Part shown: positions 3,461 through 61,013 of the stretch, piece after piece | Numbering within the stretch: the stretch's first letter is position 1 | Layout of the letters: each line of letters opens with the position of its first letter | Origin: Candidatus Staskawiczbacteria bacterium RIFOXYB1_FULL_38_37 | GTDB taxonomy: Bacteria; Patescibacteriota; Minisyncoccia; Minisyncoccales; Staskawiczbacteraceae | Assembly: GCA_001822075.1 (NCBI GenBank) | Contig: MHPK01000002.1 | Coordinates: 75,872 to 139,871 of the forward strand | Reading direction: 5' to 3' | DNA: 64,000 nucleotides | Notes under the pieces: model-generated | The model's database searches: none | What the model saw: only the letters and a program-made list of their open reading frames with translations | What the model was told of the DNA's origin: nothing | Translations under genes and position numbers: made by a program

Positions 3461-4133
3461 AATTTTAATTATAGCTCCGCATCCAGATGACGAAGTTTTG
3501 GGGTGCGGAGGGACAATTAAAAAACATATAAAATTTGGCGACGAGGCGTATTTGTGTTTGGTGACAAAGCCTTTGGTTGGAGAAAACGATTGGACAGCAG
3601 AATATGTTGAGAATAAAGATAAGGAAATAAAAGCCTCAAACGATTTTATGGGCTTTAAGCAAGTATTTTTTTTAGACTTGCCTGCTTTGCGGTTAGACAC
3701 AGTTCCCAAAAAAGATTTAAATGATAAAATTTCAAATGTTATTGAAAAAGTAAAGCCAGATGTTTTATATGCGCCGTTTTTTGGAGACATTAATCATGAC
3801 CACAGAATAGTTTTTGAGGCTTGTTTGGTAGCCTCAAGAATAAGACCTGACGTTATGGTAAATAAAATTTTAGCTTATGAAATTTCTCCCACAACAGAAC
3901 AGGGCGGAATATCAGGCCAAAAATCAGATGTTTTTTTGCCAAATTATTTTGAAGATATTTCAGATTATTTAGATGATAAGCTAAAGGCAATGGAGTGTTA
4001 TAAATCAGAGTTAAAAGAGCGCGAGCACCCAAGGTCTTTAAAGGGAATTGATGTTTTAGCTAAAAAGCGGGGTTCAGAATCCGGAGTTAAGGCAGCAGAA
4101 GCTTTCATGCTGATAAGAGAAATTAAGTTCTAA
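3453..4133 (+). CDS. PIG-L/LmbE-family N-acetylglucosaminyl deacetylase
   Basis: APHPDDEVLGCGGTI motif, later HxDH (INHDH). Confidence 0.85.
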   Translation: MNKILIIAPHPDDEVLGCGGTIKKHIKFGDEAYLCLVTKPLVGENDWTAEYVENKDKEIKASNDFMGFKQVFFLDLPALRLDTVPKKDLNDKISNVIEKVKPDVLYAPFFGDINHDHRIVFEACLVASRIRPDVMVNKILAYEISPTTEQGGISGQKSDVFLPNYFEDISDYLDDKLKAMECYKSELKEREHPRSLKGIDVLAKKRGSESGVKAAEAFMLIREIKF

Positions 4134-4544: not shown

Positions 4545-5660
4545 ATGATTCCGCTTTCAAAAGCTGATATCACAAAAGCTGAAATAAATGGAGTTTTAAA
4601 GGTTTTAAAATCAAACCAGCTTTCTATTGGGCCAAAATTAACAGAGTTTGAAGAGGCAGTTGCCAAGTATGTTGGCGTAAAATATGCGGTTGCGGTAAAT
4701 TCTGGAACCAGCGCTTTGCATTTAATAATAAGAGCCATAGGAGTCAAAGAAGGAGATGAAGTAATCACCAGCCCGTTTTCTTTTATTGCTTCTGCTAACT
4801 GTATTTTATTTGAGGGAGCTAAGCCGGTTTTTGTTGATATTAAACCAGATACTCTTAATATCAATCCTAAGCTTGTTGATAAAGCCGTTACTTCCAAAAC
4901 CAAAGCTATTTTAGCGCCGGATATGTTTGCTCATCCTGCTAATTGGGGAGAATTGCAGAAAATTGCTAAAAAGCACGAACTTTTTTTAATTGAAGATTCA
5001 GCAGAATCTTTGGGCACTTTGTATAAAGGAAAAAAATGCGGCAGTTTCGGAGACGTTTCCATTTTTGCTTTTTCTCCCAATAAACAAATTACTACTGGGG
5101 AAGGGGGAATGATTTTGACAGATGATAAAAATTTTGCCGGCTTATGCCGCAGCATGGCTAGCCATGGCAGAAAGATTAAGGGCGGAAAATGGCTAGAACA
5201 TGTAAGATTGGGGTATAATTACAGATTAAATGAAATGAGTTGCGCTGTTGGTTTGTCTCAAGTTAAGAGAATAGAAACTATAATCAAAAAAAGAAGCAGT
5301 ATCGCTAATTTATATAATAAAAAACTAAAAGAGATTGATAATATAGAAGTTCCTTATGTGGCTAAAGATGTTAGGATAAACTGGTGGGTATATGTTATTA
5401 AATTAATAGGCGGGCTCGGCGACAAGAGAGATATAATTATGAGAAAACTTTTAAAAAGAGGCATAGGATGCAGAGATTATTTTCAGCCAATACATTTGCA
5501 GCCGTTTTACAAAGAATTATTCGGCTATAAAAAAGGAGATTTTCCGATTGCTGAAAACATCAGTAAAAGAACACTTGCCCTTCCTTTTTTCAGCGACTTG
5601 TCAGAGAAGGAAATTGATTTTGTTGTCAAAAATCTGAAAGAAGTGTTAAAAACAGTTTAA
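4545..5660 (+). CDS. DegT/DnrJ/EryC1/StrS-family sugar aminotransferase
   Basis: 371 aa; AVNSGTSALHL, PLP-lysine region FSPNKQITTGEGG, GYNYRLNEM. Confidence 0.9.
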   Translation: MIPLSKADITKAEINGVLKVLKSNQLSIGPKLTEFEEAVAKYVGVKYAVAVNSGTSALHLIIRAIGVKEGDEVITSPFSFIASANCILFEGAKPVFVDIKPDTLNINPKLVDKAVTSKTKAILAPDMFAHPANWGELQKIAKKHELFLIEDSAESLGTLYKGKKCGSFGDVSIFAFSPNKQITTGEGGMILTDDKNFAGLCRSMASHGRKIKGGKWLEHVRLGYNYRLNEMSCAVGLSQVKRIETIIKKRSSIANLYNKKLKEIDNIEVPYVAKDVRINWWVYVIKLIGGLGDKRDIIMRKLLKRGIGCRDYFQPIHLQPFYKELFGYKKGDFPIAENISKRTLALPFFSDLSEKEIDFVVKNLKEVLKTV

Positions 5661-7459: not shown

Positions 7460-8398
7460 ATGTTGCCGGAGGCGCAGAGAAATGTTTTGATGAAGGAACA
7501 CACTAGCTATAAAATTGGCGGGCCAGCCAAATATTTTTTTATTGCAAGAGACAAGGAGGGTCTAATCTCTGCATTAGAAGTTGCAAAAGATTTGAATATT
7601 CCCGTATATGCGATAGGCGGGGGGAGCAATATTTTATTTTCCGATAAAGGATATAAGGGCTTGGTTGTAAAAATGAATATTGATGATACAATTTTTAACG
7701 GCAATATGGCAAAAGCTGGCGCTGGCGCAGGTTTGTCAAAATTGGCCTATTTGGCAGCTGACAAAGGGCTTTCCGGACTAGAGTGGTCCGCTGGTATTCC
7801 CAGCGCGACCGTTGGCGGAGCTATATATGGGAACGCTCAGGCTTTTGACGTTAAAATGTCAGATACAGTTAAAAACGTTGAGGCCTTAAATCTTAAAACC
7901 CTGAAAATGAAAACTTTTTCAAAAAAGCAATGCCAGTTTTCTTTGAAAAACAGCATTTTTAAAAAGAAGAAAAACCTTGTGGTTATTTCTGTTATTTTAG
8001 AATTTACAAAAAAAGATAAAAAAGAAATTAAAAAAACAATTGAGCAGTTTTTATCTTATAGAAAAAAAGGGCATCCGCTAAAATTTTTTTCGGCAGGGTC
8101 TGTATTTATTAATCCAGAGTTAGAAATAAAAGATAAAAAACTTTTGGAAAAATACCCCGAGTTTTTAAAGTTTAATGAGGCAGGAATTATACCAGCTGGA
8201 TTTTTAATACAGAAATCGGGCTTGGCTGGAAAAAAAATAGGAGATGCCAAAATTTCAGAACTGCATTGCAATTTTATAGTTAATTTGGGCAGAGCTAATG
8301 CAAAAGATGTTATTTCGCTAATAAAATTAGCTCAAAAAAAAGTAAAAAATAATTTTGGCATACATTTGGAAACAGAAATCCAATTTGTAGGTTTTTGA
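7460..8398 (+). CDS. murB: UDP-N-acetylenolpyruvoylglucosamine reductase
   Basis: YKIGGPAKYFF, AIGGGSNILF, GLEWSAGIPSATVGGAIYGNA; start trimmed from the track ORF (7220); GTG 7427 is an alternative. Confidence 0.85.
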   Translation: MLPEAQRNVLMKEHTSYKIGGPAKYFFIARDKEGLISALEVAKDLNIPVYAIGGGSNILFSDKGYKGLVVKMNIDDTIFNGNMAKAGAGAGLSKLAYLAADKGLSGLEWSAGIPSATVGGAIYGNAQAFDVKMSDTVKNVEALNLKTLKMKTFSKKQCQFSLKNSIFKKKKNLVVISVILEFTKKDKKEIKKTIEQFLSYRKKGHPLKFFSAGSVFINPELEIKDKKLLEKYPEFLKFNEAGIIPAGFLIQKSGLAGKKIGDAKISELHCNFIVNLGRANAKDVISLIKLAQKKVKNNFGIHLETEIQFVGF

Positions 8399-51306: not shown

Positions 51307-51369
51307 GAGTTGGAAGAACAGCAAAAAAATAGTAATATAAATATATTGTTTAACAAATTTAATTGATAG

Positions 51370-53016
51370 ATGATACAAAGATTTCTTAACTCGCAGGCAA
51401 AATCAATCAGTTCGGCATCTTTAATTTTAGCAGCTTCTTATTTGGCAAGCGCTTTTTTAGGTTTGTTCAGAGACAGGCTTTTGGCAGGAACTTTTGGAGC
51501 AGGAAATGAGCTCGATGTTTATTACACAGCTTTTACTGTGCCAGATTTTATCGCCTTAATTTTAATTTTTGGGGCAATTTCAGCGGCTGTAATTCCAATT
51601 TTCAGTTCATACATAATAAAATCAAAAGAGCAGGCATGGGAATATGTTTCAGCTTTATTTAACATTTTTTTGGGGTTTTTAATTTTAGTTTGCATTGTTT
51701 TAATAATTTTTACTCCGCTTATAATTTCTTTAGTGGCTCCCGGATTTTCAGGAGATAAAAAAGAAATGGCAGTTTTACTAATGCGCATTATGTTTTTGAG
51801 CCCTATTATTCTAGGCGCCTCAAACATGATAAGCGGAATTTTGCAGGTATTTCACAGGTTTTTGGTAACAGCTTTGGCTCCTGTAATGTATAACTTGGGA
51901 ATTATCACAGGCATTTTATTTTTTGTGCCAAAGTTCGGCATATCGGGGCTTGCGTGGGGAGTAGTTTTGGGAGGAGTTTTACATTTGGCAATTCAAGTGC
52001 CCGCCTTTATTTTTTCTGGGTTTAAATATAAGTTAAATTTTAATTTCAGGCACGAGGGCGTGATAAAAACAATAAAGCTGATGGCGCCAAGGTCATTGGG
52101 TTTGGCTGCCGGCCAGTTAAACACAATTGTTATTACAGCAATTGCCTCAACCTTAATGGCAGGCTCAATTGCTGTTTTTAATTTAGCAAACAATTTGTCA
52201 GCCATTTTGGTAAACACCGTTGCTCTTTCTCTTTCAACTGCAATTTTTCCTTCAATGTCTATGGCATTTTTGCAGGCAGAAGAGGAAAAGTTTTTGCAAA
52301 AATTTTCCAATGTTTTCAGGCAGACTCTTTTTTTAATAATTCCAATAAGTATTTTAATTTTAATTTTACGAGCTCAGATTGTAAGGGTAATTTTAGGAGC
52401 TGGAAAATTCGGCTGGGTAGACACAAAACTTACCATTGCCTGCCTTGGCATATTCAGCGCAAGCTTATTTGCACAGGGCCTTATTTTTATACTTTCTAAA
52501 ACATTTTATGCTTCCCATAATACAAAAATTCCTGCTATCATAAGCGGATTAACAGTGGCTTTTAATATTATTTTTAGCTTAATTCTTGTCTGGCTTATAA
52601 ATTTTTCTGTTGGATTTTCTCTTTTTGTGCAAATGTTTTTCAGATTAGAGGGTGTAAAAAATCTTGACGTTGTCTGCCTGGCTTTGTCATATTCTGTAAG
52701 CGTGATATTGCAGGTTTCTCTGCTTTTATATATGCTTTATAAAAAATTTCCAAATCTAAAAGTTAAAGAGATTTCCGATTCTCTGCAAAAAATAATTATT
52801 GCATCTGTAATTATGGCGCTTTCAACATTTTTAATAAGGCAGCTGCTTGGCTCTTCTGTAAGTTTGCAAACCTTTTGGGGCATATTTTTTCAGTTAGTTT
52901 TATCCGGCATTGCTGGAATTGCAATTTATACCGCAGCAACATTCTATTTAAAATCCCAGGAACTAAAAACAATATCAGACTCATTCCTTAAAAAATTCCT
53001 TTACCCTGACAAATAG
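51370..53016 (+). CDS. murJ: lipid II flippase MurJ (MviN family)
   Basis: 548 aa, about 14 TM helices; N-terminal FGAGNELDVYYTAF pattern. Confidence 0.85.
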   Translation: MIQRFLNSQAKSISSASLILAASYLASAFLGLFRDRLLAGTFGAGNELDVYYTAFTVPDFIALILIFGAISAAVIPIFSSYIIKSKEQAWEYVSALFNIFLGFLILVCIVLIIFTPLIISLVAPGFSGDKKEMAVLLMRIMFLSPIILGASNMISGILQVFHRFLVTALAPVMYNLGIITGILFFVPKFGISGLAWGVVLGGVLHLAIQVPAFIFSGFKYKLNFNFRHEGVIKTIKLMAPRSLGLAAGQLNTIVITAIASTLMAGSIAVFNLANNLSAILVNTVALSLSTAIFPSMSMAFLQAEEEKFLQKFSNVFRQTLFLIIPISILILILRAQIVRVILGAGKFGWVDTKLTIACLGIFSASLFAQGLIFILSKTFYASHNTKIPAIISGLTVAFNIIFSLILVWLINFSVGFSLFVQMFFRLEGVKNLDVVCLALSYSVSVILQVSLLLYMLYKKFPNLKVKEISDSLQKIIIASVIMALSTFLIRQLLGSSVSLQTFWGIFFQLVLSGIAGIAIYTAATFYLKSQELKTISDSFLKKFLYPDK

Positions 53017-53018
53017 AC

Positions 53019-53046
53019 GAATAACTCAACAGCCGTTGAGTTATTC
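53019..53046 (+). repeat. 28-bp hairpin direct repeat, left copy
   Basis: GAATAACTCAACAGCCGTTGAGTTATTC, identical to 55369-55396. Confidence 0.9.
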
Positions 53047-53050
53047 AAAC

Positions 53051-53071
53051 CAGCCCAAAAGGGCTGTTTTT
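53051..53071 (+). terminator. rho-independent terminator
   Basis: CAGCCC-AAAA-GGGCTG plus T5. Confidence 0.8.
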
Positions 53072-53127
53072 GTTTTGACTACTCTATGGTAAAATTATAT
53101 GATTAGTTAATAAGCCCATAAATAAGT

Positions 53128-54264
53128 ATGAAAAAACAACTTGGACAATTTTTTACAACGAAAGCAGATGCCGTTCTTTTGGGTTTTGAAAATTTTGTCA
53201 AAAATAAATATGTTGTTGACCCCTTTGCCGGCAATAAAGATTTGATAAATTGGGCGAAAAAAAATAATTGCAAAGAGGTTGTTGGTTTTGATTATGATAA
53301 AAATTATATTGATAATAAAGAAGTTTTTTTGAACGATTCGATAAATCAGGCGCAGAAATATAGATTTGTTTGTACTAATCCGCCATATCTGCATAAGAAC
53401 AAGGCAGACAAAACAACTAAAGATAAATTTTTTAATGGATTTAATTCAAAATTTGAGGATTTATATCAAATATCAATTAATTCAGTTTTAAATAGCGAAG
53501 AAGGTATTTTAATTGTCCCCTTAAATTTTCTTTGCGCTGAAAATTCAAAAAAAATTAGGGATTTATTTTTTGATAAATTTGAAATTATAAAATTGAATAT
53601 TTTTTCTTCTCAAATTTTTAAAGATACAACCTATAATGTAGTGTCATTTTATTTTAAAGAAAAGAAAGATGATTCCTCTAAAAATAAAATTTCAGCCACA
53701 ATTTTTCCAGATAATAAAAATATTACATTTACAATTCAAAAAGAATTTAATTGGCAATTAGGAGGGGATTTTATTAATAGAATAAAAAATACGAAAAATT
53801 ATCTCGGAATTTTTCGCCTTACAGAGGATTATTTAAAATCCGGTGAGTATGAAGTGGAAATGGCGTTGCAAAACATAAAAGATAGAAAAATTTTTCATAT
53901 TAGCTCTGGGATTAAAGAGAAACTGAAAAAAAATATTTTGTTTCTTAGGGCAATAGACAGCAAGAGTGGCAAAAAAATTCAAATAGAAGATATAAGGGAC
54001 TATGGTATCGCGGGGCTTGCAGGAAAAAATACTTCGCGAAATATGGCCCACTTAATTTTTGATAAAGATATCCCGATAAACGAGCAAGTAGGGCTGATGA
54101 CGCAATTTAATAAAGAATTGAATGAAAACAGAGATAAATATTTTTCGTATTTTTTAACAAATTTCAGGGATAATAATAGAAAAAGAATTTCTTTTGACTT
54201 AGTTTATAAATTTTTAAATTATATTTATCATGAAAAAAAGTCTAAACAACCAACACTATTTTAA
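53128..54264 (+). CDS. N6-adenine DNA methyltransferase (gamma-class order of motifs)
   Basis: LGQFFT, VVDPFAGNKDL (motif I-like), CTNPPYL (motif IV). Confidence 0.75.
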   Translation: MKKQLGQFFTTKADAVLLGFENFVKNKYVVDPFAGNKDLINWAKKNNCKEVVGFDYDKNYIDNKEVFLNDSINQAQKYRFVCTNPPYLHKNKADKTTKDKFFNGFNSKFEDLYQISINSVLNSEEGILIVPLNFLCAENSKKIRDLFFDKFEIIKLNIFSSQIFKDTTYNVVSFYFKEKKDDSSKNKISATIFPDNKNITFTIQKEFNWQLGGDFINRIKNTKNYLGIFRLTEDYLKSGEYEVEMALQNIKDRKIFHISSGIKEKLKKNILFLRAIDSKSGKKIQIEDIRDYGIAGLAGKNTSRNMAHLIFDKDIPINEQVGLMTQFNKELNENRDKYFSYFLTNFRDNNRKRISFDLVYKFLNYIYHEKKSKQPTLF

Positions 54265-55141
54265 AATATCTATGGAAAATCCAGAAGGCATTTTAGATGA
54301 ATTTTATGTTTTTGACGAAAAACACCCTCAATTGGAAAAGTATGTTTCTAATACAAAAGATATTAAAAATCTTTTGATTACGATAAAGACATTAAAAGAA
54401 CGGGGAGAAGATAAAGCAACTACTAAAAAATATTTGATAGAACTTTCTAATATCCTAAATAAATTTTCTAATTGTTCAGAGTTCGGTTGTTTTATAAATG
54501 CTTGTGATAGTTTTTTAGATTTTGCAAAAACTGATTTAAATTTACTCGGGAAAATAGCGGACAAATATTTTGAGAAAAGAATTTTGAATGAATCAATCCC
54601 CGAAGAGTGGATACAGGCGATACTAGACTCAAATTCGTCTAGAAAAAAAAGCAAATGCGGAGAAGAAAAACTAATATATATCTTAAAACATAATGGTTTT
54701 CAGGAAATTAAAAAATGGAACGATTTTTTCAAAAAAGAAAAATGTGTCGCTAAATTTTCTAAAAATTTTAGCGTTAAAAATATTAGAAGAAAATTGAATA
54801 TTAAATTATCTACTAAAAAGCAGAATAAAAATTTAGATTTAATTATCAAAAGCGGGGACAAAATCTTTATGTGTGAAGCAAAGCATTTAAACACTTCTGG
54901 GGGAGGACAAGATAAGCAGATATCAGAATTAATTGAGATAGTTAATTTAAGAGAAAATAATAAAAATATTTATTATATAGCCTTTTTAGATGGCATTTAT
55001 TCTAATGTTCTCTTAAATAGCGCTGATGGAGGAAGTAAATTAAAGCAACAACAAAACGAGATTAAAAAATATTTGTCCATTAATTATAATAATTTTTGGG
55101 TAAATACAGCAGGATTTAAACAGTTGGCTTCTGATATGTAA
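54230..55141 (+). CDS. putative type II restriction endonuclease (PD-(D/E)xK-like)
   Basis: Overlaps the methyltransferase gene end; LDLIIKSGDKIFMCEAKH fits D..(E/C)xK; alternative start ATG 54272. Confidence 0.5.
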   Translation: MKKSLNNQHYFKISMENPEGILDEFYVFDEKHPQLEKYVSNTKDIKNLLITIKTLKERGEDKATTKKYLIELSNILNKFSNCSEFGCFINACDSFLDFAKTDLNLLGKIADKYFEKRILNESIPEEWIQAILDSNSSRKKSKCGEEKLIYILKHNGFQEIKKWNDFFKKEKCVAKFSKNFSVKNIRRKLNIKLSTKKQNKNLDLIIKSGDKIFMCEAKHLNTSGGGQDKQISELIEIVNLRENNKNIYYIAFLDGIYSNVLLNSADGGSKLKQQQNEIKKYLSINYNNFWVNTAGFKQLASDM

Positions 55142-55163
55142 AAATTAATTGAGAAATAAAAAT

Positions 55164-55370
55164 ATGGTTAGTTTAGTCATTATTTTAGCCGTTGCTGTTA
55201 TTGCAGTTTTTGTTATTAGCGGGATTGTTTGGGCTGTGCGGAAAGATTCAAAAGATGAGAAAAAAGAGAAAACAATGCCAGCGCTGGTGCAAAGGCAGGC
55301 GGCGGAAAAACAGGGAGTTTTAAAACAGGTGGGTGATATTGGGCAGGGAGTTTATTATACAAAAACATGA
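55164..55370 (+). CDS. small single-TM protein
   Basis: MVSLVIILAVAVIAVFVISGIVWAV then charged tail; stop lies inside the right repeat. Confidence 0.4.
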   Translation: MVSLVIILAVAVIAVFVISGIVWAVRKDSKDEKKEKTMPALVQRQAAEKQGVLKQVGDIGQGVYYTKT

Positions 55371-55396
55371 ATAACTCAACAGCCGTTGAGTTATTC
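55369..55396 (+). repeat. 28-bp hairpin direct repeat, right copy
   Basis: Identical to 53019-53046. Confidence 0.9.
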
Positions 55397-55400
55397 GGTA

Positions 55401-55424
55401 AAAGCCCTATTTTAGGGTTTTTTG
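55401..55424 (+). terminator. rho-independent terminator
   Basis: AAAGCCCTA-TTT-TAGGGTTTT plus T-run. Confidence 0.7.
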
Positions 55425-55490
55425 CTTGTCCTGAGGAACTTGAAGGAATTGAAAAAAGAGGGTTTTTTTGGTAAGATTACATTAAATTCT

Positions 55491-57338
55491 ATGCAAGAAA
55501 ATATCAGGAATTTTTCTATCATTGCTCACATTGACCACGGCAAGTCCACATTGGCTGACCGGCTTTTGGAGTTGACGGGCACAATAGACCCTAAAAAAAT
55601 GATGCCTCAATTTTTAGATTCAATGGATTTGGAAAGAGAAAAAGGAATTACCATAAAACTAAAAGCCATCAGAATGGAACTAGACCCATTGAAAATTGAA
55701 AATTTAAAATTGAAAATTCCAGTTCAGAACTATGTTCTGAATCTGGTGGATACTCCCGGCCACGTTGATTTTTCTTATGAGGTTTCAAGGTCTATGGAAG
55801 CTGTTGAAGGAGCTGTTTTATTGGTTGACGCAACGCAGGGAATTCAGGCGCAAACTTTGGCAAATTTGGAACTGGCAAAACAACAGAACTTGAAAATTAT
55901 TCCTGTAATAAATAAAATTGATTCGCCCATAGCAAAAGTTGAAGAGTCAGTTGAAGAGCTGTCAAATCTTTTGGATATTTTGCCCGATGAAATTATAAAA
56001 ATTTCTGCAAAAGACGGCACAAATGTTGCGCAAGTTTTAGAAACTATTATACGAGAAGTACCTGGACCCGCCCAAAGCCCTGCGGGCATTGAGGCGGGTG
56101 AACGCCCCTTCAGGGCGCTCATTTTTGATTCAGAGTACGATTCTTTCAAAGGCGTAATTGCTTTTGTGCGCGTTATTGACGGTGAAATTTCAAACGGAGA
56201 AAAAATTGAATTAATGGCAACAGACGCGCCAGCTGAAATAAAAGAGCTTGGTTATTTAAATCCTGATTTTTCTCCAAAAGAAAAATTAACGGCGGGCGAT
56301 ATAGGATATATTGCAACAGGAATTAAGGAGCCTGGCAAAGTTACAGCGGGTGATACCATTATCAAACAGCAATCTTTGGCAACAAAAGGCAGTATTAAAC
56401 CTTTACCAGGATACCAAGAGCCAAAGCCAATGGTGTTTGCTTCATTGTACCCCGAAAATCCCGATGACTTCGGCGATTTAAAAGTTGCCTTGTCAAAATT
56501 AAAATTAAATGACCCTGCATTGATTTTTGAGCAGGAAATGAAAGAGGCTTTGGGAAGGGGGTTTAATTGCGGGTTTTTGGGCACCTTGCATATTGAAATT
56601 ATTTCAGAAAGATTGCAAAGAGAATTTGGCTTAAACCTGGTAATTTCAACGCCGTCTGTTGTCTATAAAATAATAGACAATAAAGACAAAGAAATTTTGA
56701 TTTATTCAGCTTCTGATTGGCCCGACCAGTCAAAAATAAAAAGCTCCGAAGAGCCATGGGTGTCATTAGAAGTTATAGCTCCGTCTAGCCAAATAGGAAA
56801 GCTGATGGAAATTCTAAAAAGTTTGAAAGGCAATTATGTGGACACAAATTATTTGAGCCCCGAAAGAGCTGTCATAATTTTTGAAACTCCTTTGCGGGGA
56901 ATTATTGCCAATCTATACGACAAAATAAAAACAGCCAGCCAGGGGTATGCTTCAATGAATTATAAAATTTTAGGATATAGGCCGGCAAAATTAGTAAAAA
57001 TGGAAATTTTAATTGCAGGGCATAAAGAAGAGGCGCTTTCAAAAATTGTGGCAGAAGAAGAAGCTTATTTTGAGGGTAAAAAAGTTGTTGAAAAATTAAA
57101 AGATGTTTTGCCAAAGCAAATGTTTTCTGTTGCCTTGCAGGCGGCTGTCGGAGGAAAAATTATTGCCAGAGAAACAATTAGGGCTTATATGAAAGATGTT
57201 GCGGGATATCTTTACGGGGGAGATATAACTAGAAAAAATAAATTGCGCGAAAAACAAAAAAAGGGCAAAAAGCTTATGAAGCAAAAAGGCCAGATAAATG
57301 TGCCAACAAAAGCATTTTTAGAAGTATTCAGGGCTTAG
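55491..57338 (+). CDS. lepA: translation elongation factor 4
   Basis: IIAHIDHGKSTLADRLL, DTPGHVDF, NKID; C-terminal LepA-specific region; start trimmed from 55422. Confidence 0.95.
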   Translation: MQENIRNFSIIAHIDHGKSTLADRLLELTGTIDPKKMMPQFLDSMDLEREKGITIKLKAIRMELDPLKIENLKLKIPVQNYVLNLVDTPGHVDFSYEVSRSMEAVEGAVLLVDATQGIQAQTLANLELAKQQNLKIIPVINKIDSPIAKVEESVEELSNLLDILPDEIIKISAKDGTNVAQVLETIIREVPGPAQSPAGIEAGERPFRALIFDSEYDSFKGVIAFVRVIDGEISNGEKIELMATDAPAEIKELGYLNPDFSPKEKLTAGDIGYIATGIKEPGKVTAGDTIIKQQSLATKGSIKPLPGYQEPKPMVFASLYPENPDDFGDLKVALSKLKLNDPALIFEQEMKEALGRGFNCGFLGTLHIEIISERLQREFGLNLVISTPSVVYKIIDNKDKEILIYSASDWPDQSKIKSSEEPWVSLEVIAPSSQIGKLMEILKSLKGNYVDTNYLSPERAVIIFETPLRGIIANLYDKIKTASQGYASMNYKILGYRPAKLVKMEILIAGHKEEALSKIVAEEEAYFEGKKVVEKLKDVLPKQMFSVALQAAVGGKIIARETIRAYMKDVAGYLYGGDITRKNKLREKQKKGKKLMKQKGQINVPTKAFLEVFRA

Positions 57339-57405: not shown

Positions 57406-59025
57406 ATGAAAATTAAATCATTTGCAATAATATCAGCATTATTTTTAGTTTTATTAATAATTCCAGGTGCCAGTTATGCGCAGACTTGGTGCCATACTTT
57501 TAATAAAAATTTAGGCGTTGCAGATTCTGGCTCAATTGATGTGGCATATCTTCATGTCGCTCTTTTATCAGAGGGCATTTCATATGGAAATGACGGTCTT
57601 ATTGCTTATTCAGATGGAACGATTGCCGGCGTAATCGTATTTCAGGAAAAATATGCTTCTGAAATTTTAGCTCCATGGGGCCTCACAAAAGGCACAGGAT
57701 ATGTTGGCACAACAACAAGGGCAAAACTAAACCAGCTTTATGGATGTTCAAGCTCTTCGGGCAATTCAGGGACACCCACTTGCGCTGTAAACTGGCAGTG
57801 CACAAATTGGGGCAATTGCTACAGCAACCAGCAAATAAGAGTTTGCACTGACTACAATTTCTGCGGCACAACTTCTGGCAAGCCAGTTGAAACCCAATCC
57901 TGCGCTTCTTCAACCTGCGCTCCAAGTTGGCAGTGCACGGGTTGGAGCGCATGTTCTGGCGGCCAGCAAACTAAAACTTGCACAGATTATAACTTCTGCG
58001 GCACAACTTCTGGCAAGCCGGCAACAACGCAGTTTTGTTCTTCTACTAATACAAATAACACAAACAATACAAACACTTGCCAGGCGACCTGCATAACTCA
58101 GACAGATGGAGTTTATGCCATTGACTGCTATGGAAATCCGACAAAGTGCAGTTCAACTCAAATTTGCGAAAAAACTTTTGACACAAGCTATAACTATTCA
58201 AGCGGGTATGTGCAGACTATACAAACTTTAACAGGGGCCCACTGCGCATACAGCAGTAGCAGCAACACAAATAATACAAGTTGCACGCCAAATTGGCAGT
58301 GCGCTGGTTGGGGCGCATGCTATAACGGTTATCAAACACAAACTTGCACAGATTACAACTTCTGCGGCACAACATATAACAAACCTGCAACAAGCCGGAG
58401 TTGTTGTACCGAAGATTGGGAGTGCGGTAATTGGTCAGCTTGCGCTAACAACCAACAAACGCGTACCTGCGCAGATTTAAATAGTTGCGGAATTGCAACT
58501 AAAACTGAAAGCCAGTATTGTTGTGTTGAAAATTGGGACTGCGGTGACTGGAGTAGCTGCAACAATGAACAACAGACAAAAACCTGCGTAGATTTAAATA
58601 ATTGCGGCACAACTTTAAATAAGCCCGCAACCTCGCAATATTGTTGCGAGCCCAATTGGTTTTGCAGTCTCTGGGGAGTTTGTTCAGCTTATGGCCAGCA
58701 AACAAGAACCTGCGCCGATTCAAATAGTTGCGGAACTCCAGAAGGCAAGCCAGAAACAACGCGATCTTGCGCCTGCGTTGAAAAATGGCAATGCGGAGCT
58801 TTTAGTGCTTGCTACAATAGTCAGCAGACGCGCTTTTGCTATGATGCAAATCACTGCGGAACTACAACAAACAAACCCTATACTAAGCAGTCATGCACCT
58901 CAACTTGCAGTCCAAATTATGTATGCAGCCAACAGCCCGCCTGCAAAAACAGCCAGATACAGAGCTACTGCTATGATTTAAATGCGTGCTTTAGCCAGTC
59001 TGAATTTAGAATCTGCGCATTTTAA
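57406..59025 (+). CDS. secreted protein: peptidoglycan-binding-like module plus about 8 six-Cys repeats
   Basis: Signal peptide; FQEKYASEILAPWGL; repeats C-x3-W-x-C-x2-W-x2-C-x4-5-Q-x-(R/K)-x-C-x-D-x-N-x-CGT. Confidence 0.7.
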   Translation: MKIKSFAIISALFLVLLIIPGASYAQTWCHTFNKNLGVADSGSIDVAYLHVALLSEGISYGNDGLIAYSDGTIAGVIVFQEKYASEILAPWGLTKGTGYVGTTTRAKLNQLYGCSSSSGNSGTPTCAVNWQCTNWGNCYSNQQIRVCTDYNFCGTTSGKPVETQSCASSTCAPSWQCTGWSACSGGQQTKTCTDYNFCGTTSGKPATTQFCSSTNTNNTNNTNTCQATCITQTDGVYAIDCYGNPTKCSSTQICEKTFDTSYNYSSGYVQTIQTLTGAHCAYSSSSNTNNTSCTPNWQCAGWGACYNGYQTQTCTDYNFCGTTYNKPATSRSCCTEDWECGNWSACANNQQTRTCADLNSCGIATKTESQYCCVENWDCGDWSSCNNEQQTKTCVDLNNCGTTLNKPATSQYCCEPNWFCSLWGVCSAYGQQTRTCADSNSCGTPEGKPETTRSCACVEKWQCGAFSACYNSQQTRFCYDANHCGTTTNKPYTKQSCTSTCSPNYVCSQQPACKNSQIQSYCYDLNACFSQSEFRICAF

Positions 59026-59078
59026 AATTATTCCGTTCAAAATTATAATTTTTAAAAGTATTAATAGATTTTAATTTT

Positions 59079-61013
59079 ATGAAAATAAAAATATTTTTAA
59101 TAGCAGTTTTGTTTTTATCTTTGCTGATAATTCCCGGAGTAATTTTGGCGCAAGAGTGGTGTCACACCTTTAAGGTTGGTTTAAGAAAAGGCGACCAAAG
59201 CCAGGAAGTTTCTGAACTACAAAGAGCTTTGATGAAAGAAGGACTTTTATTTATTCCCCAGCCCACTGGCTTTTTTTGGAATGCTACATTTGACGCTGTT
59301 GTTGCTTTTCAGGAAAAATATGCTTCTGAAATTTTAGCTCCTTGGGGATTAACTCGCGGGAATGGCGTGGTGAGCTTTAAAACAAGAGAAAAATTAAATC
59401 AACTCTATGGATGTTCAACAATTTCCACCTGTACTCCGAGTTGGCAATGCGCAGATTGGAATATGTGTTCAAACAATCAGCAGACCCGAACCTGCGCAGA
59501 TTCTAATAATTGCGGAACAACGGCAAACAAACCCATAACAACTCAGTCGTGTTCTTCAACTTGCACTCCAAACTGGCAATGTTCAGATTGGAGCGCGTGC
59601 GTTACAGGCGGCCGGCAGACCCGAGCCTGTACTGATTCTAATAATTGCGGAACAACTCAACCAGAAACAGCTAGGTTTTGCCCTTGTACTCCGGATTGGG
59701 AATGTATCCAATGGAGCCCCTGTTGGAATGGCGAGAGAGCCCGCGCATGTCACGATAAAAATAATTGCGGTGATAACACAAACAGACCCGAGATAAGACA
59801 ATCCTGCGCGTATACTTGTGAGCCAAATTGGTCTTGCACAGATTGGAGTAATTGTATTCCTACTGGTTTAACGAGCGGTATAAAATATAGAAATTGTGTA
59901 GATGAGGGCAATTGCGGAACAACCGCAAATAAACCTTTAACAACGCAAGTTTGTTCTACTGGAGCTCCTGCTCCAGTTCCTGAATGCACATCAGCCGATT
60001 GGTCTTGCACAGACTGGTCAGATTGTTCTGTTTCCGGCGCTGTTCCTTTGAGCAGCACCCAGACTTTGACTGGCACTCAAACCCGCACCTGTAGTAGAAA
60101 ATCAGGTAATAATTGTTATGGTGGCAATCCCGCAACAAGCCAGTCTTGCACCGTGGAAGTAGAGGTTCCAACACCAACTCCAACCCCGACGCCTACGCCA
60201 ACACCAACTCCAACCCCGACCCCGACTCCGATTGAACCAACGCCGACCCCGACCCCGACTCCAACGCCAATAGGGATAGCTCCTACACCAGGATGTACCA
60301 TGTCTGCTCAACCTACTATAGGTTGGAGTAGTTGCGTTTGTGGCGAGAAATATAAAACAAATTATGTCGTTCAATATTGTCCTGATGGAACAACTGAAAG
60401 CCTCAGCGAGACAATGCAAGAAGCTCAATGCGGTTATAAAGTAGGAACGAAAACATATTGCTATGAAGGTTCAAAAGATCCCCAAAATAATAGCAAGAGT
60501 AAGGAAGTGTGCGCTGTTAATAATTGGAATGGTACGTTAGGAGATACTTGGCTGATCGGCTACAAAGATCAAGGAGCTCAGTGTGTTGTTAAAAACGGAG
60601 TGATAGGCGGTACATGTGGTTATAATTGTTATTTTAGTGGAGGAGAACAAATACATTATCCAGACACAAAGCCTCATTGCAGTTCAGAGTGTAAACAAGA
60701 TAATAATGGAAGACTATGGGCCGTCAATGAGGGGGGTAATGTGTCACCACATTCAAGGGTAAATTGCGGATATGTATCAAGCGGAGCTAAATGTACACTT
60801 CAAGATGGCACTTATTGTAAAAAAGCTGTCTGTTTGAGTAATCTTGCCACCGCTCCTAAGCCATCTGGCGGCAGTTCGGGGTCGTCTCTAACACCTCTTA
60901 ATTCTACTCCAACTCCAACACCGATCCGGACCCTGACTCCAACTCTTGACGATATCCAAAATCAGCTGGCATCTATTGCGAGTGTAATTTATAATTTATT
61001 GAATCCTCAATAA
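59079..61013 (+). CDS. secreted paralogue: peptidoglycan-binding-like module, about 5 six-Cys repeats, (PT)n linker and Cys-rich C-terminal domain
   Basis: Same N-terminal architecture; PT-rich linker encoded at 60167-60270. Confidence 0.7.
   Translation: MKIKIFLIAVLFLSLLIIPGVILAQEWCHTFKVGLRKGDQSQEVSELQRALMKEGLLFIPQPTGFFWNATFDAVVAFQEKYASEILAPWGLTRGNGVVSFKTREKLNQLYGCSTISTCTPSWQCADWNMCSNNQQTRTCADSNNCGTTANKPITTQSCSSTCTPNWQCSDWSACVTGGRQTRACTDSNNCGTTQPETARFCPCTPDWECIQWSPCWNGERARACHDKNNCGDNTNRPEIRQSCAYTCEPNWSCTDWSNCIPTGLTSGIKYRNCVDEGNCGTTANKPLTTQVCSTGAPAPVPECTSADWSCTDWSDCSVSGAVPLSSTQTLTGTQTRTCSRKSGNNCYGGNPATSQSCTVEVEVPTPTPTPTPTPTPTPTPTPTPIEPTPTPTPTPTPIGIAPTPGCTMSAQPTIGWSSCVCGEKYKTNYVVQYCPDGTTESLSETMQEAQCGYKVGTKTYCYEGSKDPQNNSKSKEVCAVNNWNGTLGDTWLIGYKDQGAQCVVKNGVIGGTCGYNCYFSGGEQIHYPDTKPHCSSECKQDNNGRLWAVNEGGNVSPHSRVNCGYVSSGAKCTLQDGTYCKKAVCLSNLATAPKPSGGSSGSSLTPLNSTPTPTPIRTLTPTLDDIQNQLASIASVIYNLLNPQ

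Follow-up and report, generated by a model that had tools for sequence, protein, structure and literature searches.

In the pneumococcal dpn locus the unrelated restriction systems of the DpnI, DpnII and DpnIII cassettes lie between conserved flanks (PMC3573125, PMC3812788), and at dpn-type loci exchange proceeds via the flanking homology, in a naturally competent host and with no recombinase (PMC3573125, PMC3812788, PMC2853133). Non-homologous systems in homologous flanks likewise make up the 'substitution' class of Furuta et al. 2010 (PMC2853133), as in the hsd region of E. coli. A locus that appears to resemble both in these respects is found in Candidatus Staskawiczbacteria bacterium RIFOXYB1_FULL_38_37 (assembly GCA_001822075.1), a member of the Patescibacteriota, where a two-gene restriction-modification operon, bracketed by two copies of a 28-nucleotide (nt) hairpin, lies between the core genes murJ and lepA. 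The DNA analyzed is a 64,000-nt stretch of contig MHPK01000002.1 (positions 75,872 to 139,871 of the forward strand), called the window below; positions are those of the window unless a relative, designated by an L number, is named. Comparison of alleles suggests that the murJ-lepA interval is probably a promoter-equipped slot in a sub-clade of Candidatus Staskawiczbacteria, the cargo of which is replaced by homologous recombination. Among the papers searched, none links Staskawiczbacteria with restriction systems.

A probable variable slot between murJ and lepA

The features of the locus, with the evidence for each, are as follows (aa, amino acids).

51370-53016, + strand: murJ (lipid II flippase), left core gene and homology arm; Pfam MurJ, E = 4.6e-81
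53019-53046, + strand: hairpin copy 1; stems identical in L044 and L041, which hold other cargo
53051-53076, + strand: intrinsic terminator 1, CAGCCC-AAAA-GGGCTG and then the T-run TTTTTGTTTT; terminator scan, fold, alignment conservation
53075-53112, + strand: conserved promoter module TTGACT-17-TATGAT; promoter scan, 10/12
53128-54264, + strand: cargo gene 1, putative gamma-class N6-adenine DNA methyltransferase, 378 aa; Pfam, motif order
54230-55141, + strand: cargo gene 2, putative PD-(D/E)xK endonuclease, 303 aa; Pfam DpnII/Tsp45I, motif, model
55141-55163, + strand: right junction motif AAAATTAATTGAGAAATAAAAAT, 23 nt, directly before the ATG of the 68-aa gene; comparison of alleles
55164-55370, + strand: 68-aa membrane protein, from its ATG; alignment with sister strains
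55369-55396, + strand: hairpin copy 2, 3' of the membrane winged-helix gene; fold, repeat search, gene comparison
55397-55428, + strand: intrinsic terminator 2, AAAAGCCCTA-TTT-TAGGGTTTTTT; fold, with structure kept and sequence changed in L044, L041 and L030
55449-55477, + strand: lepA promoter TTGAAA-17-TAAGAT with TG extension; promoter scan, conserved in alignment
55491-57338, + strand: lepA (EF4), right core gene and homology arm; Pfam GTP_EFTU, LepA_C

Between alleles, blastn homology extends over 51368-53112 and again over 55134-55572, with nothing alignable in between, and the breaks at 53112/53113 and 55133/55134 lie 66 nt and 235 nt inside the repeats. On the murJ side the DNA is 82% identical to that of sister strain L031 up to 53112, the last base of the promoter module. 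The closer relatives, recovered by an exact-stem scan of JGI metagenomes and by homolog look-ups, are arranged as follows.

L031 and L044-46 (MurJ 84% identical in amino acids): hairpin, terminator, promoter (38/38), cargo of a HEAT-repeat N4/N6 methylase and an RE_CfrBI nuclease, junction motif, winged-helix gene, hairpin, terminator, lepA
L041-43: same frame; cargo of three genes, for an N6_N4 methylase, a weak PDDEXK_11 protein and a further product
L011: frame as above, but with a second terminator-promoter module behind the winged-helix gene; tandem restriction-modification operons, one an Eco57I-type methylase and nuclease, the other an N6_N4 methylase and RE_MjaI
L030: right half of the frame only, with a DUF2188 gene upstream

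The L046 sequence and the window contig come from one sampling project, and the alleles therefore co-occur. The promoter module, which can also be read as an extended -10 (TGgTAAAAT), is kept at 36 of 38 positions in L041 and is present twice in L011. The junction motif AAAATTAATTGAGAAATAAAAAT precedes genes in the variable islands of L011 (twice), L015, L017, L022 and L041 (twice), always on the coding strand and, where checked, with an ATG directly after it; all 23 of its bases agree between genomes with no more than about 72% identity in their murJ DNA. Its role may be that of a translation-initiation module or of a cassette junction. Its sites are at 5303 and 7719 of L011, 563 and 851 of L015, 6159 of L017, 6105 of L022, 7460 and 7978 of L041, 17 of L003, 7358 of L007 and 2333 of L009. 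Neither the promoter module nor the junction motif had a match in viral contigs.

Among 21 GTDB representative genomes showing both murJ and lepA, the two genes are 4-82 nt apart, and the site is thus empty, in 12; the other nine carry inserts of 0.6-7.3 kb, the contents of which include Type I and Type II restriction-modification systems, a LexA-like gene and a pair of SET-domain and ArsR-like genes. The hairpin was absent from these representatives, including all 12 empty sites, at up to 6 substitutions. The diversity of inserts together with the empty sites therefore marks the murJ-lepA junction as a hotspot, the empty state of which has no copy of the repeat. Nor was a one-copy site present among the exact-stem matches in the JGI metagenomes. 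A LexA-like repressor gene comes directly after murJ in two genomes that have Type I or Type II restriction-modification genes in their inserts (L007 2970-3641, L017 806-1477).

The methylase-nuclease pair of the window (378 and about 303 aa), with the same overlap, is present at three other loci in other Patescibacteria, two of them downstream of rpoC and between a cation ATPase and rmuC; the promoter there is different, and no flanking hairpin or direct repeat was found around the pair at these loci. The G+C content (GC) of the cargo is 0.27 against about 0.37 in its surroundings. In support of the cassette read in the initial annotation, the composition and the differing alleles show foreign-looking cargo at a variable junction, and on these comparisons the cargo is both foreign and mobile without repeats.

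The same annotation had taken the duplicated hairpin for the likely footprint of cassette insertion or recombination, and had pointed to a single-copy empty site as what to look for in relatives. The data speak otherwise. Three sister alleles keep both hairpins around unrelated cargo, the breakpoints fall inside the repeats, the same gene pair occurs elsewhere with no repeats, and the 12 empty relatives hold zero copies each; their gene order is the same and flanking repeats are absent, the very finding that the annotation had named as a refutation. From the alleles compared, the hairpin repeat is not the insertion footprint of this cassette, because empty sites are zero-copy, the pair elsewhere is repeat-free and the frame keeps its repeats with other cargo.

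The alleles thus share a fixed frame. On the left, the murJ stop is followed by the 28-nt hairpin, then by an intrinsic terminator, then by a promoter of sigma-70 type; on the right come the 23-nt junction motif, the small winged-helix membrane gene, another copy of the hairpin, terminator 2 and finally the promoter of lepA. The cargo in between, from 53113 to 55133, is variable, with at least four alternatives. In the arrangement we propose, the frame promoter would transcribe the cargo operon together with the small membrane gene; the methyltransferase would shield host DNA and the endonuclease would cleave unmethylated invaders. After DNA uptake, cargo would be exchanged by homologous recombination in the frame and the flanking core genes, by analogy with dpn, and the hairpin would be a structural element of the frame, neither product nor tool of the exchange. 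Patescibacteria are reported to retain homologous-recombination genes and competence machinery (PMC12455944). No recombinase or integrase was found in a Pfam search of 20 of the larger open reading frames (ORFs) of the window, nor among the Pfam-annotated genes up to 10 kb on each side.

The restriction-modification genes

The present cargo is, by its sequence, a Type II system of the DpnII/Tsp45I superfamily with putative enzyme activities. Its two genes are co-oriented and overlap by 35 nt; the Pfam matches, this overlap and the retention of the pairing elsewhere bear out the initial description of a two-gene Type II operon. The methyltransferase matches Pfam N6_Mtase at 21.6 bits (cut-off 20.4) and has the motifs LGQFFT, DPFAGN and TNPPYL in that order, which therefore places it in the gamma class; its orthologs beside the nuclease in other genomes match Eco57I (PF07669). 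Both the motif order and the N6_Mtase/Eco57I-type matches are contrary to a Dam-like, alpha-class cognate methylase.

The partner protein had been said to have no motif of a known family. However, it passes the Pfam cut-offs of both Tsp45I (30.9 bits, cut-off 25) and DpnII (29.9 bits, cut-off 23), and is therefore assignable to known families; the match covers nuclease residues 166-257 and positions 157-246 of the 278 in the DpnII profile PF04556. The PD-(D/E)xK-like motif that had been noticed (D203...E216-A-K218) stands: it lies inside the Pfam match, D203, E216 and K218 are invariant in 40 homologs, and in an AlphaFold2 model (predicted local distance difference test, pLDDT, 79.6) the three residues are on consecutive strands of an alpha/beta core. 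There are 630 homologs, mostly Patescibacterial, one of which is named 'DpnII family type II restriction endonuclease' by NCBI. The top-ranked, weak Foldseek matches of the model are PD-(D/E)xK nucleases (Can2, Card1, HindIII, BspD6I and NucS), and a sequence search of the PDB gave no match for either the methylase or the nuclease.

The methyltransferase is 68% identical to the methylase of the L022 insert, and the nuclease shares 30% of 64 aligned residues with a strong Tsp45I-family protein of L022. At 3859-5805 of L022 the methylase is followed by this Tsp45I-family endonuclease gene, which has an internal stop codon and the C-terminal part of which matches at E = 9e-33; the methylase is thus conserved, and its nuclease partner there differs or is in decay.

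Of the 4-mer palindromes, GATC, the site of the DpnII family, shows the strongest depletion in the window (28 observed against 108 expected, a ratio of 0.26), and the cassette has none. We reject this depletion as a sign of the nuclease's specificity: sister strains with other cargo are equally depleted (observed/expected 0.05 in L044). Throughout the clade, in the window and in L002-L044, GATC is strongly depleted irrespective of cargo, and CTAG and TCGA are also low. GTSAC, the site of the Tsp45I family, which the nuclease matches as well as it does DpnII, is not depleted in the window.

The hairpin, its terminators and the winged-helix gene

The 28-mer GAATAACTCAACAGCCGTTGAGTTATTC occurs at both 53019-53046 and 55369-55396, as initially described, with no third site in the window at up to 3 mismatches and an expectation of 0 matches in 100 shuffled sequences. 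Folded, it forms a perfect stem of 12 bp closed by a loop of 4 nt (AGCC in copy 1). Each copy is followed by a terminator hairpin of its own, also as first described and now seen by terminator scan and fold for the first and by fold for the second, the stem-loop of which is at about 55400-55424; the 81-nt stretches of hairpin and terminator have folding energies of -28.1 and -27.7 kcal/mol (z = -5.7 and -6.4). Copy 1 begins after a gap of 2 nt from the murJ stop (murJ end 53016), and copy 2 shares 2 nt with the TGA of the 68-aa ORF. Repeat identity ends at the edges of the palindrome: in a 38-nt extension 7 of 10 A-rich bases match, the two terminators differ in sequence, and the sequences that follow the hairpins have only a weak resemblance (z = 1.3-2.1). 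The idea that hairpin, terminator and promoter were duplicated as one longer unit in the distant past was considered and set aside, the similarity being non-significant. On the minus strand, T-rich runs follow both window hairpins and receive terminator-like scores in the terminator scan.

A search of Rfam with the hairpin returned sub-threshold matches to a plastid 3'-untranslated-region hairpin and nothing else. Two further identities were tried for the 28-mer. It can be read as 11-6-11, in the manner of dif, and the GC skew, positive throughout the window, excludes a replication terminus; as a DNA-uptake sequence it is ruled out by its 2 copies per 64 kb.

The right-hand copy belongs to a gene of its own. 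The 68-aa transmembrane protein is present as originally described, and alignment with sister strains, in which the gene is intact, further identifies it as the remnant of a membrane-anchored winged-helix gene of about 110 aa. An in-frame deletion of 126 nt, with its junction near 55304-55309 at a GGAAAA microhomology where the blastn pieces overlap, took most of the DNA-binding domain; the full-length homolog P0121 has HTH_24, HTH_11 and HTH_DeoR matches. In all seven distinct winged-helix sequences found by protein search, a hairpin starts at the stop of the gene or up to about 16 nt past it. The core CTCA...TGAG of these 3' hairpins is conserved, being CTTCA...TGAAG in L015 and partial in L011, and their outer stems differ between sequences in a compensated manner. 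The initial annotation regarded the right border as a duplicate of the murJ terminator, but the copy there is the hairpin that normally lies 3' of the membrane winged-helix gene.

Within the sub-clade all 24 stem bases are unchanged in each copy, and loops vary (AGCC, GGTC, AGCT, AGGGC). The flanking DNA is 82-86% identical; if sites are independent, a copy would keep all 24 bases at 18% divergence with a probability of about 0.01. The stems, kept at 24 of 24 bases amid 14-18% flank divergence, are therefore under constraint. In an alignment of the hairpin family both sides have changed in 7 of 11 pairs, a count that leans towards structure in that some members were found as hairpins. For the gene upstream of it, the hairpin may act as a 3'-end stem-loop; given the T-rich run on the opposite strand, it may also be a stop for antisense transcripts; and it is possibly a product of template-switch correction of palindromes.

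Palindromes of this family beyond the proposed slot

The palindrome copies are more alike within a genome than between genomes (L003, L022 and the window clade). Of particular interest is a copy with loop AGCT in the coding region of tsaD. The genome concerned, to which L028 and L029 belong, is that of the L044 allele with its CfrBI-type cargo (A2998_00990, A2998_03020), and three copies are thus documented for it, one of them intragenic. The tsaD palindrome is at 4860-4887 of L028, 4582-4609 of L029 and 384-411 of L032, and is also present in the tsaD of L047, L048 and L049; it encodes NNSTAVELF and leaves the length of the protein unaltered. In L049 the perfect 12-bp stem is retained via a compensatory synonymous pair (GAAC...GTTC). 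From these occurrences we take the hairpin to be a member of a small dispersed palindrome family.

Several palindromes in other sequences were also seen. In the IMG/VR contigs L050-L053 (6699-6724 of L051) a 26-nt version, AATAACTCAAC-AAGG-GTTGAGTTATT, lies in frame in the gene of a giant phage virion structural protein (phrog_10938, E = 4e-46); the contigs count as a single independent case, which may be a coincidence, the chance expectation being roughly estimated at 0.02. Very long perfect palindromes are present in these AT-rich genomes, at 5165-5206 and 390-439 of L028, 1577-1608 of L032, and 3706-3751 and 9819-9872 of L018; among these long palindromes are a GC-rich one of 42 nt inside tsaD, coding for part of KARPSRVREGRAFAK, one of 50 nt with the core GAATAGCTCAG, and stems of 21 and 25 bp centered on CGATCG. 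In the murJ-lepA interval of L010 a different 12-4-12 palindrome, ATAGGACAATTC TATG GAATTGTCCTAT, occurs at 7595-7622 and, with its loop inverted, at 7934-7959, the two bracketing an ArsR-like helix-turn-helix gene that follows a SET-domain gene.

Neighboring sequence

The true start of lepA is the ATG at 55491, because homologs begin with MQENIRNF. Between terminator 2 and the lepA promoter the window has a 23-nt insertion, GCTTGTCCTGAGGAACTTGAAGG (55419-55441), absent in L044, L041 and L030. Downstream of lepA, two large cysteine-rich proteins without a Pfam match (539 and 644 aa; repeats of the CxxWxxC type) occupy 57406-61013, over which the GC skew falls to about 0; homologs of these proteins follow lepA in many relatives.

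Weighing of the proposed slot and its alternatives

Several points weigh against the proposed slot as set out above. The model rests on the comparison of alleles, with no recombination event directly seen, and it is conceivable that the hairpin-terminator-promoter unit underwent an ancient duplication when the frame first entered, a reading to which the weak resemblance already noted would lend itself. A pure RNA-structure role for the hairpin leaves unexplained both a stem sequence that is invariant in the clade and the palindrome inside tsaD. As to the cargo, the Pfam match of the nuclease is to the catalytic core only, its N-terminal 160 residues having no match, and Foldseek of the model against the PDB gave nothing significant (best E = 0.025).

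Of the other explanations, the one that survives best concerns the function of the hairpin and is compatible with the slot: the palindrome would be a putative binding site, either operator or membrane tether, of the adjacent winged-helix protein. A dimeric helix-turn-helix protein would be well matched to a perfect palindrome, each distinct sequence examined has a hairpin of the family after the winged-helix gene, and the sequence of the stem, beyond its pairing, is invariant in the clade; the stems are common within a genome and differ between L003, L022 and the window clade, and the different palindrome of L010 brackets a gene for a helix-turn-helix protein in its turn. However, the winged-helix domain of the window is deleted with both palindromes intact, the half-site spacing ranges from 3 to at least 8 nt across genomes, and symmetric changes in the arms fit base pairing or template-switch correction no less well. 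We consider such a binding site unlikely. Somewhat less likely again is the broader proposal that the palindrome is an element recognized in trans that marks an integrase-less cassette platform, whether as a site of capture or recombination on incoming single-stranded DNA or as a winged-helix tether or operator; it would draw on the stems being alike base for base at three unrelated sites of one genome (after murJ, after the winged-helix gene and within tsaD), on the compensatory synonymous change in the tsaD of a related strain and on the possible copy in the phage virion gene.

The proposed slot has also to be set against insertion of the cassette at the 3' end of murJ with duplication of the hairpin, whether by long target duplication or by site-specific integration that left attL/attR sites. 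Low-GC restriction-modification genes beside core genes are indeed bracketed by an exact direct repeat of 28 nt, the terminator and promoter regions after its two copies are weakly alike, and restriction-modification units flanked by direct repeats, with no mobility genes, are a documented class (Nobusato/Furuta; PMC2853133). Against this, the empty sites and exact-stem matches include none with one copy, the repeats outlast three unrelated cargoes with the breakpoints inside them, the right copy has its own gene, and no integrase is encoded in the regions searched. Moreover, only 1 of the 4 central bases is shared by the two L044 copies, a poor basis for strand exchange, and at 28 nt the repeat is shorter than the 30-bp threshold of PMC2853133. 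Unlike long target duplication, the present case thus combines a 28-nt repeat with zero-copy empty sites and survival of the repeat through replacement of the cargo, and we regard the insertion as very improbable.

True attC sites are defined by extrahelical bases and a length of 57-141 nt. That the hairpins serve for recombination in a cassette array that has no integrase or is encoded at a distance from it, attC-like or Xer/dif-like, with capture at folded hairpins, is the least credible explanation of all: L011 does have two serial cassettes, each after a hairpin-terminator-promoter unit, the 28-mer can be read in dif-like form, its core ACTCAAC/GTTGAGT fits the attC pattern RYYYAAC/GTTRRRY on inspection, and structure is kept while sequence drifts, but the cargo breakpoints are away from the hairpins, no tyrosine recombinase is present in the window ORFs tested or the neighboring gene list, the perfect 12-bp stem has neither the extrahelical bases nor the length of attC, there is no GC-skew switch here and hence no replication terminus, the loops of partner copies differ, and one copy is inside the essential gene tsaD. 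Identity with an integron attC is ruled out by the length, the perfect stem, the breakpoints and the lack of an integrase in the genes searched, in spite of the fitting core.

Comparison with known systems

Patescibacteria have tiny genomes with few recognized mobile elements, and the turnover of their defense genes is poorly known. The murJ-lepA locus, with its probable promoter-equipped slot flanked by two essential genes, offers a concrete and easily surveyed case, in which co-occurring strains fill the slot differently, apparently without a recombinase. A widespread Patescibacterial nuclease with 630 homologs is now placed in the DpnII/Tsp45I superfamily, and a small conserved palindrome family with a copy in tsaD is brought to notice. 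Noteworthy are the conservation of the frame, the presence of one 23-nt junction motif in several genomes and the palindrome in tsaD; the restriction-modification system and the logic of cassette swapping are both ordinary, and current ideas are not overturned.

The window nuclease has the catalytic PD-(D/E)xK core in common with the DpnII/MboI (PF04556) and Tsp45I (PF06300) families, but, unlike DpnII systems with their Dam-like methylase, its partner is gamma-class and Eco57I-like. The palindrome recalls REP (repetitive extragenic palindromic) elements and the Rickettsia palindromic elements in being short, discrete-ended and present at three or more unrelated places of one genome, one intragenic. 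REP elements have many extragenic copies per genome and a cognate RAYT transposase; in contrast, three copies are documented here, the length of the TsaD protein is unaltered and no transposase was seen.

The core defense hotspots of P. aeruginosa (cDHS, PMC10250203) and the defense islands of E. coli (PMC10121019) likewise have a fixed pair of core genes with empty or diverse cargo. Unlike those, the present site is much smaller (0.6-7 kb), its genome is tiny, and in one sub-clade it holds a single-operon slot provided with its own expression signals. The locus differs from dpn in that the flanks include a dedicated promoter, a junction motif, a winged-helix membrane gene and a repeated hairpin, and in that the host is a Patescibacterium, for which the exchange is inferred. 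Both kinds of system are already known: a Type II system of the DpnII/Tsp45I superfamily, and an allelic defense slot at a core-gene hotspot.

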